From: Escherichia phage Turkey5
Sequence record: PQ471516.1
DNA length: 64,000 nucleotides
Reading direction: 5' to 3' (one strand)
Made by a program: the position numbers and the translations under genes
Notes under the pieces: model-generated
The model's input: only the letters and a program-made list of their open reading frames with translations
Database searches by the model: none
Told to the model about the DNA's origin: nothing
Shown here: piece after piece, positions 48,902 to 49,505 of the stretch
Layout: each line of letters opens with the position of its first letter
How positions within the stretch are numbered: the first letter of the stretch is position 1

Positions 48902-49505
48902 ATGGGACAAATTCGTAAATGGTGATACAATGATCTATGCACAACCACAATGACAGTACTTGTACTGATAATCTTCCCTAATTCACTTGAAAACGTAAAG
49001 GATAGATGAGCTTTTCATTGTAGCGAACAGCAAAAGAAACCCGTTAGATGTGGGCATAGTTTGAACCCCTCACGGCAATGCGGCTGTATAAAGAACCACG
49101 TTAGGATGGCTGGTGGTTCCTCGATAGACATATAAGGATAACACCTTACGAATTATCTAAGGGAGAGTTATCAGATTTTGTACAATATAGTTGCGTCCAA
49201 AATTTGAGTACTCACATTAAGTATTTGATTGCATAGATACTTAATGAAGATACACTATGTTTAAAAGTGTAGACCGTCATATGAAACTGAAGTAGAGAGA
49301 ACCAGGATGACCCGCTTTCGTGCTCTTTAAGAGTAATCTTCAATGCAATAGCTCTGATACCATCAGCGTCAAATTCCCCTCGGTGTGGGGGGGGGAAGAA
49401 AAATCACCTCAACAAATCCCGTCAATATTAAAAGTCCTTGACAGTTATTATACATTCGCGTAAGATACGTAGTATCAGAAGCGAACAGACATCTCGAAGA
49501 GATGG

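Follow-up and report, generated by a model that had tools for sequence, protein, structure and literature searches.

A large, pseudoknotted noncoding RNA predicted in Escherichia phage Turkey5 and its jumbo-phage relatives

Ornate RNAs of phages and the Turkey5 locus

Elaborate and conserved large RNAs are rare in bacteria and phages, the known cases being ribosomal RNAs, RNase P, group I and group II introns, transfer-messenger RNA (tmRNA), OLE, GOLLD, ROOL and raiA, and every one of them has proved to be a catalyst, a machine of RNA and protein or, unexpectedly, an assembly of RNA alone. A further candidate is described here from Escherichia phage Turkey5 (PQ471516.1), of which a stretch of 64,000 nucleotides (nt) was analysed (hereafter the window; coordinates are those of its shown strand). 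Positions ~48941-49432 (plus strand) of this window, downstream of a sigma-70-family gene, are very likely to be a gene for a large structured noncoding RNA (ncRNA) of roughly 490 nt.

The nearest described analogues are ROOL and GOLLD. ROOL (RF03087) is a phage-encoded RNA with many helices, several covariation-supported pseudoknots and no associated protein gene (PMC5737381), and a covarying 'tertiary' loop pairing of ROOL has been reported to be the intermolecular kissing loop of an 8-mer cage (PMC12286853). The RNA of Turkey5 and ROOL are alike in being phage-encoded, ~500-600 nt long and built of many helices and pseudoknots with no linked protein gene, and by analogy the pseudoknot here named PK1 could be a contact of the same kind. 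On the other hand, the two do not match in sequence or structure, ROOL lies near transfer RNA (tRNA) islands whereas the Turkey5-type RNA does not, and the family described here belongs to virulent jumbo phages that infect Gram-negative bacteria, each genome holding 2-5 diverged paralogues. GOLLD (RF01998) is likewise a large ornate RNA of phages and prophages that carries variable or optional modules beside a conserved core (PMC12286853), but it exceeds 800 nt, is tRNA-linked and has an unrelated fold, without an Rfam match here. Pseudomonas phage PA5oct encodes ncRNA002, an ORF-free (ORF, open reading frame) transcript of 451 nt and putative long ncRNA that was defined by RNA sequencing and makes up ~5% of phage reads in early and mid infection (PMC7318152). 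It may be an analogue, being an ORF-free transcript of ~450 nt from a jumbo phage related to the Rak2-like group, and its abundance indicates that such phages do make abundant large ncRNAs, although its sequence (MK797984, 14452-14902; locus L059) has no similarity to the present family by nhmmer. Finally, group I introns of T4-like phages share with this family a pseudoknotted structure of several hundred nt and the proximity of HNH genes, whereas the family gives no match to their model, is not inserted in a gene and has a promoter of its own.

A sequence-only reading of the window had singled out the region as a noncoding island, and its interpretation is partly supported overall. Between 48926 and 49505 there is no ORF of at least 60 amino acids (aa) in any of the six frames, the longest one wholly inside having 47 aa. 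The island thus stands except for its proposed start at 48902, which an 82-aa ORF (48677-48925), lying out of frame inside the sigma gene, overruns by 24 bases. It is the third-longest gap of this kind in the window, and the tRNA cluster holds both longer ones together with two of the three next-ranking ones. The region does sit between the terminator of the sigma gene and the next ORF, it is less AT-rich than its surroundings, as had been noted (GC content 0.396 versus 0.355 for the window, at the 95th percentile among 604-bp segments), and the run of nine G that had been thought unusual, with CCCC upstream at 49376-49379, is the sole G or C run of at least 7 within the window.

A scan with Rfam and Infernal, proposed as a check in the same reading, returned no family match. 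Using cmscan and the 4227 families of Rfam 15, with E-value and gathering thresholds, no match at E<=10 was obtained in 48930-49440, in 48000-50500 or in 13 family loci, the scans giving only chance-level matches (SraG, CRISPR-DR53, snoRNAs). This negative result is meaningful because the same library detects tRNAs in the window as well as a group I intron (RF00028, 95 bits, E=3e-23) at 32996-33309 (plus strand). With no covariance-model match, ROOL, GOLLD, OLE (RF01071), HEARO (RF02033), RNase P, tmRNA and 6S RNA were rejected as identities, and so were the known riboswitches and known ribozymes of Rfam. The suggestion of an intron or mobile-element remnant also finds no support, since there is no Rfam group I or II match, no host gene is split and the copies are ancient and syntenic instead of recently mobile; moreover, the sigma gene keeps its own stop (48867) and terminator (48897), the RNA has its own promoter and the flanks vary from copy to copy. 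No description of the family was found in the full-text literature on Rak2-like phages and large bacterial RNAs, as far as that literature is searchable, and one beyond it is possible. Having failed every family test run, the family appears to be new at the level of the RNA class, while large ornate phage RNAs as such have precedents.

Family members, covarying fold and 3' module

A blastn search of the stretch against 50,697 phage records found it in 61, all of them genomes of 310-386 kb, at 2-5 places per record. Comparison with related phages, also suggested from the sequence alone, therefore shows it to be conserved: identity is 87-98% among Escherichia and Salmonella Asteriusvirus, with phage JNE01 as the nearest relative of the window copy (98%), and ~70% over window ~48975-49435 in other genera, namely in Pectobacterium CBB, Cronobacter GAP32, Serratia BF, Erwinia pEa_SNUABM phages, Yersinia fHe-Yen9-04, Salmonella Munch/7t3, Klebsiella fENko-Kae01 and Xanthomonas XbC2. 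There are 41 distinct full-length members of 471-574 nt (exact-pattern scans, viral contigs), and about fifty further loci come from metagenomes and bacterial assemblies (three assemblies). Phage 121Q carries four copies, at 90.3, 192.8, 247.5 and 326.6 kb, all on the plus strand; within the window, neither blastn with word size 7 nor nhmmer found a second copy. As far as seen, the family is confined to Rak2-like jumbo phages (Asteriusvirus, Mimasvirus, Eneladusvirus and relatives). Copies from different genera group together by paralogue type, one type being common, for example, to Yersinia fHe-Yen9-04, GAP32 and several uncultivated genomes, and copies inside one genome are only 63-77% identical; the repertoire must therefore be older than the phage genera, each type having been kept.

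Conservation is accompanied by covariation. Already in an alignment of six sequences the arms of hairpins change together, as in GAACCAC/GUGGUUC, GAAGUAC/GUACUUC and GAGCA/UGCUC. A structural model was built by scanning all column pairs of the family MAFFT alignment for stacked covarying pairs, and it consists of 17 nested helix segments plus two pseudoknots, every helix being fully complementary in the window. Over 41 sequences, standard pairs fill 90.5% of cells, against 38-46% when the 3' partners are slid by 1-3 columns; both sides change in 76 of the 101 modelled pairs; doubly changed cells number 630, compared with 189 +/- 11 after shuffling (0 of 500 shuffles reach the observed figure); and the covariation score is 0.439, versus 0.06-0.11 for slid partners. 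Because the model had been derived from the same alignment on which it was first counted, it was tested on an independent set made up of the window copy and 14 sequences unused in the derivation, which are 70-94% identical to the nearest training sequence (XbC2, Kaldavass, Munch, Hallingskeid, TH47, a Serratia contig, a contig from an Enterobacteriaceae metagenome-assembled genome (MAG) and seven metagenome contigs). In this set 91.2% of cells are paired as opposed to 38-44% with slid partners, 59 of 93 pairs are compensatory, and none of 500 shuffles reaches any of the five measures. Two helices stand outside the counted model: P2, whose columns are too variable for MAFFT, and P16, whose window form (CUGAU/AUCAG) the family does not support, the alternative GACGA/UCGUC being ambiguous in the MAFFT alignment.

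Helix by helix, the inverted repeat that had been picked out by eye corresponds to P6, in which two-sided changes affect all seven modelled pairs, each of the inner five showing 3-4 pair types, and in which 93% of cells pair among the 41 sequences and 94% in the independent set. P4, P12, P13 and P14 pair in 100% of cells of the 41 sequences, with 2-4 pair types at the variable positions, and the last three reach 100%, 100% and 94.7%, respectively, in the independent set. The first pseudoknot, PK1, is found in five versions overall, the other members having AUUGUAU/AUACAAU, UUCAUGU/ACAUGAA or GUCGAAU/AUUCGAC, among others, in place of the window pairing; 98-99% of its cells pair, and both sides change in 6 of 7 pairs (5 of 7 in the independent set). 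PK1 may form within one molecule or between molecules, the sequence being compatible with both.

About 120 columns are invariant, mainly in loops and junctions, and they include the blocks GAAAAYGUA, AGAUGAG, GAAACCCGU, CACGGCAAUGCGGC, UAUAAAG, GAUAGACAUAUA, CUAAGGGAG, GACCGU and ACCCGC. The hairpin-loop module of P9 (UACAAUAUAGAUCCGUCC) is placed between P14 and P15 instead in some paralogues, at both positions in locus L054 and at neither in L014, a relocation such as peripheral RNA modules typically show, and two alternative versions of the P5 region exist across the family. With more than 400 nt, a multi-helix fold backed by covariation and counted as 18 helix segments when both pseudoknots are included, pseudoknots and many invariant unpaired nucleotides, the RNA shows the attributes of large ornate ncRNAs.

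The core is followed by a 3' module in which an A-rich variable stretch separates hairpin P17 from the second of two similar motifs. In its family form P17 reads UUCAUUCCCC-UGCG-GGGGGAUGAA; hardly any variation is seen in the G strand, and the opposite C/U strand varies one-sidedly, only in ways that keep the pairing, and for this reason the G-run is to be seen as a conserved feature of the family. Its length among orthologues is 9 in the window and in Turkey3, 8 in JNE01, 7 in locus L118, 6 in 121Q and in UE-S1, and 5 in TH47. The family norm is G6 and the three extra Gs of the window copy sit in the P17 loop, a pattern consistent with loop slippage that is tolerated and is neither a frameshift nor a switch. 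In 512 kb of loci the 3' module was counted 46 times, in every case with a core no more than 700 nt upstream, and the window holds no other example of it. Since it is absent from the rest of the window and never stands without a core, two proposals for it were rejected, a general phage promoter and a nut/boxA-like site; the boxA-like or MotA-box-like letters TGCCTCA are not conserved among members. The two motifs co-change within a copy (both go from AUC to ACC, or from CGUCA to UGUCA), so that GUCAA stands at both in all Asteriusvirus copies and GUCAG in all CBB and GAP32 copies.

Signals for transcription accompany the fold, each copy forming a unit of its own behind an extended -10 promoter of host type. 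The sequence TGnTATAAT precedes 41 of 41 aligned members, lying 7-45 nt 5' of the conserved start ACAAYYCUG, and across the family a GAAAC/GGGACA element is often found ~17 nt upstream of it. At the other end, 38 of 63 members have a hairpin resembling an intrinsic terminator, with T5-9, behind the core, and in two paralogue types the GUCAG of motif 1 forms the terminator stem; the window copy and 24 others have no terminator after the core. As a separate observation, one paralogue type (loci L006, L013, L016, L019, L030, L031, L041 and L045) has a covarying, terminator-like hairpin with U5-7 in its leader, ~50 nt upstream of the RNA 5' end and between TGnTATAAT and the conserved start, which could stabilise the 5' end, act as an attenuator or terminate a very short separate transcript.

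No sign of coding was found. Each of the 41 members has at least three stops in every one of the six frames (8-14 per frame in the window copy), three-base periodicity is absent from the conserved blocks of these members, and their indels are not multiples of three. Hence correction of the homopolymer, through which the sequence-only reading had allowed a protein-coding frame to emerge, cannot create a conserved one, with a G-run of 5-9 and stops in all frames of every member. A mini-ORF of 10 codons in the 3' module (AUG AAA AUG CCU ...) was also discarded: the window copy has no start codon for it, and members differ by indels of 1-4 nt. The features of the locus are collected in Table 1.

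Table 1. Positions of the RNA, its helices and its flanking features in the Turkey5 window
Feature	Position	Strand	Remarks
Sigma-70-family gene	47905-48867	+	Sigma70_r2 and Sigma70_r3 domains
Intrinsic terminator of sigma gene	48872..48897	+	11-bp stem, then T-run; 5' boundary of unit
Predicted RNA promoter	48904..48931	+	-35-like GGGACA, 16-nt spacer, extended -10 TGaTACAAT (promoter scan); activity inferred
RNA core, helices P1-P16	48941..49372	+	complementary in window; covariation
P1	48947-53/49015-21	+	
P2	48955-59/48962-66	+	
P3	48978-88/48998-49005	+	loop GAAAACGUA
P4	49027-31/49083-87	+	
P5	49052-54/49066-68	+	
P6	49093-99/49113-19	+	inverted repeat GAACCAC/GTGGTTC, 7/7 pairs
P7	49133-37/49144-48	+	
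P8	49165-68/49210-13	+	
P9	49173-80/49198-205	+	conserved 17-nt loop UACAAUAUAGUUGCGUC
P10	49215-26/49235-46	+	
P11	49251-55/49267-71	+	
P12	49276-80/49307-11	+	
P13	49288-92/49338-42	+	
P14	49295-99/49315-19	+	
P15	49323-26/49330-33	+	
P16	49354-58/49362-66	+	window-specific form
Pseudoknot PK1, 5' strand	49228..49234	+	in P10 loop; pairs with 49343-49349
Pseudoknot PK1, 3' strand	49343..49349	+	AUUGCAU/AUGCAAU in window
Second pseudoknot (P12 with P13/P14)	49276..49311	+	P12 3' strand in P14 loop, inside P13
Motif 1, AUCAGCGUCAA	49362..49372	+	ends core; family form A[U/C]CA-N-[C/U]GUCA[G/A]
Hairpin P17 of 3' module (UUCCCCUC / GGGGGGAA)	49374..49397	+	8/8 pairs in window
G9 run	49387..49395	+	3' arm and part of P17 loop
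Motif 2, AAUCCCGUCAA	49415..49425	+	closes 3' module; near-repeat of motif 1 minus one A
Sigma-70-like promoter for downstream ORFs	49438..49466	+	TTGACA, 17 nt, TAAGAT (near-consensus); 3' boundary
Next ORF downstream	49506-49739		phrog_37707

A proposed trans-acting RNA particle and its alternatives

A structured ncRNA was among the candidates named from the sequence alone, and it has strong support from conservation, from a promoter at every copy, from the compensatory changes in the modelled pairs and from validation on the independent set. The reading favoured here goes further and holds that the region is an ncRNA gene whose product acts in trans, as an RNA or an RNA-protein particle; to this statement as a whole we assign a probability of about 0.6. 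The host sigma-70 RNA polymerase would make the RNA early in infection, the RNA and not a DNA signal would be the functional form, and it would work in trans as a folded particle, be it an RNA-protein complex, a ROOL/GOLLD-like multimer or possibly a ribozyme. The 3' hairpin and the CGUCAR motifs would serve 3'-end formation, stability or partner binding, the hairpin probably protecting or defining the 3' end or binding a partner. This reading is preferred because neither the orientation of the copies nor their neighbours point to a shared downstream target, because the dense invariant unpaired nucleotides suggest tertiary contacts or a partner, and because in the nearest analogues, ROOL and GOLLD, covarying 'pseudoknots' proved to be intermolecular cage contacts (PMC12286853). 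It is proposed only tentatively, at slightly less than even odds, that these RNAs form a new class of large pseudoknotted RNA in jumbo phages of enterobacteria and xanthomonads that works as an RNA machine. Such a machine would be an RNA multimer or a ribozyme, or it would supply the RNA core for an RNA-protein complex used in host take-over, and the G-rich hairpin with the twin CGUCAR motifs would then be a new 3'-end or partner-recognition module. The interest of the family lies in the fact that coliphages are growable and engineerable, that each genome has several diverged copies and that conservation reaches from Escherichia to Xanthomonas phages. If the reading is true, this RNA would be the first of the ornate phage RNAs that routine genetics can reach (with E. 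coli K-12 hosts, and with 121Q, PBECO4 and phAPEC6 in culture), and it would offer a direct way of learning what such RNAs, ROOL and GOLLD among them, do.

Several points weigh against a trans-acting particle. That the loci are transcribed, where the RNA begins and ends and how abundant it is are predictions from sequence. The model was derived and first counted on one MAFFT alignment, which the independent set mitigates, yet its sequences too are related by descent. Minimum-free-energy folding gives the window RNA a z-score of just -1.58, is uninformative by itself and misses the pseudoknots; the evidence for the fold is evolutionary, not energetic. No protein gene is consistently adjacent to the copies, and a scan for a covarying partner of motifs 1 and 2 found none, giving invariant G/U or lineage-correlated columns. 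The 3' module is kept even behind a terminator-like hairpin, although a trans RNA ending there would not need it. In the window, scanning found no plus-strand terminator-like site between the RNA and 51000, and since its copy thus lacks a terminator before the downstream ORFs, the RNA here may also be a long leader. The conserved 3' module past the terminator-like hairpin, together with the concerted motifs, therefore keeps two cis models alive.

According to the first of these, which takes up the replication signal suggested from the sequence alone and which we consider unlikely, the copies are RNA-primed replication origins: a host-polymerase transcript of ~450 nt would fold, hybridise persistently at the G-run and be processed to the leading-strand primer, and the dispersed copies would be several origins of a T4-like replicon. 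Parallels exist in ColE1 RNA II, in the R-loops of T4 oriF/oriG and in the G-runs of mitochondrial CSBII, and the layout of a promoter, ~450 nt and a G-run is comparable to that of a ColE1-type origin. RNA II, reportedly described as a pre-primer by Masukata and Tomizawa in Cell in 1990, is also a folded transcript of ~450-550 nt with a sigma-70 promoter and a G-run near its functional 3' region; it has simple stem-loops, an antisense regulator and a single plasmid origin, whereas the present family has two pseudoknots, extreme loop conservation, a G-run buried in a hairpin and several copies. The spacing of the copies (~55-110 kb), their constant plus-strand orientation even amid minus-strand genes and the host-type promoter at each would suit an origin. 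So would the nearly invariant G6, located 440-520 nt downstream of the start and conserved in sequence on the G strand only, the extension of conservation beyond the terminator-like hairpin and ~50 nt past motif 2, and the concerted evolution of motifs 1 and 2, which as direct repeats behave as protein-binding iterons would. However, a fold that keeps two pseudoknots and, in its loops and junctions, invariant nucleotides by the dozen across genera goes far beyond the known needs of a primer, the G-run sits in a stable RNA hairpin whose pairing would compete with the hybrid, the cumulative GC skew has no inflection at 49 kb, and the concerted motif changes are specific to each paralogue (in cis) within one genome, which speaks against a single initiator protein. 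If an origin were nevertheless involved, the locus would offer a route to the replication start in phage genomes of 350 kb.

The second cis model, a leader or attenuator in which the fold responds to a ligand, to a tRNA or to a protein and chooses between the terminator after motif 1 and read-through into the 3' module and the genes behind it, is likewise improbable in our view. It would account for the 38 of 63 members in which a hairpin and T-run come immediately behind the core and for the two types that build the terminator stem from motif 1 (GUCAGA/UCUGAC), where, because motif 1 supplies that stem, P16 and the terminator are mutually exclusive; motif 2 could replace motif 1 after read-through, and in the window transcription would run on into the downstream ORFs. 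Yet copy 4 of 121Q, which lies on the plus strand among minus-strand genes, between the endonuclease VII and baseplate hub genes, and its orthologue in Erwinia phage Hallingskeid, which also adjoins endonuclease VII, face convergent minus-strand genes, so that there is nothing for a leader to regulate there. The genes downstream differ at every copy, as do the other neighbours, the terminator is missing from the window copy and 24 others, and the downstream genes of the window own a consensus-like promoter. Furthermore, to our knowledge the known sensor domains are far smaller than at least 430 nt with two pseudoknots.

A self-processing ribozyme, the core of which would cleave or ligate at the repeated CGUCAR motifs and thereby free the RNA or process another RNA, is compatible with either cis model and is doubtful on its own account. 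Size, pseudoknots and many invariant unpaired nucleotides are features from which it has been argued that large RNAs may be catalytic (PMC5737381; PMC11332333). The variable positions of the motifs change by transitions only, and both motifs could thus wobble-pair with one invariant guide, and where the terminator is missing, the 3' end must arise in some other way; against this, no Rfam ribozyme family matches and a covarying guide for the motifs was not found. The trans-acting particle also fares far better than a hidden protein-coding gene or pseudogene with a homopolymer error, or a pure DNA signal for packaging (a candidate of the sequence-only reading) or recombination, which are next to negligible: small hypothetical proteins are annotated over the stretch in several GenBank records and the G-run varies in length among close relatives, but the stops, the non-triplet indels and the lack of codon periodicity contradict a gene, covariation, including that between segments ~110 nt apart, has no duplex-DNA explanation, and the copies are several, dispersed and internal, distant from the termini and outside the ~20-kb terminal repeats that have been reported for these phages (PMC13070987).

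Neighbouring genes, annotations and other loci

Transfer RNAs do not accompany the family, ARAGORN having found none at 42 of 43 family loci and no tmRNA, and the tRNAs of the window lie at 30.4-35.8 kb, 13 kb from the RNA. HNH homing-endonuclease genes tend to settle by highly conserved DNA, and they are present near several copies, within 1 kb of copies 1 and 3 in 121Q. In phage TH47 (locus L155, MT446416), an HNH gene of 210 aa (384-1016; phrog_953, E=1e-73) stands between the promoter and the RNA; this locus is orthologous to window ~48935, and its RNA belongs to another paralogue type, in which a terminator is present and the P9 module has moved.

Most annotators have left these loci blank or given them small hypothetical ORFs. 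Small 'hypothetical protein' coding sequences overlie the RNA, on either strand, in JNE01, WPEC3/5, E9.1, JP4 and SHEFM2K, and likewise in the SD-*_S* Salmonella phages, in GAP32_503A and as 121Q gp516. In view of the stop codons and the covariation, they are very likely spurious, and in practical terms dozens of GenBank records are blank or carry spurious small ORFs at these places.

Copies were also seen in bacterial assemblies. On the chromosome of Serratia sp. L9 (NZ_CP192591; 3513-3873 of locus L075, minus strand), a degenerate and 5'-truncated copy begins exactly at CACGGCAAUGCGGC, where it is fused to the end of a serine-recombinase ORF of 200 aa (Resolvase domain), with miaB-like, Hcp and transposase genes as neighbours; it looks like a phage fragment captured by the bacterial chromosome. 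Full-length copies lie on ~200-kb contigs of a Serratia assembly (L076) and of an Enterobacteriaceae MAG (L069), which are probably jumbo-phage contigs.

Elsewhere in the window, the group I intron that served as positive control lies in the tRNA cluster, just downstream of tRNA-Ser (32807-32896). A weak Rfam tRNA match at 31790-31868 (plus strand; 33 bits, barely over the gathering score), unreported by ARAGORN, may be a divergent or degenerate tRNA. Other stretches with neither an ORF of at least 60 aa nor an Rfam match at gathering threshold are 29133-29627, 23480-23871, 59138-59480, 35070-35600 and 31870-32409, and these might hold further unannotated RNAs or regulatory regions.

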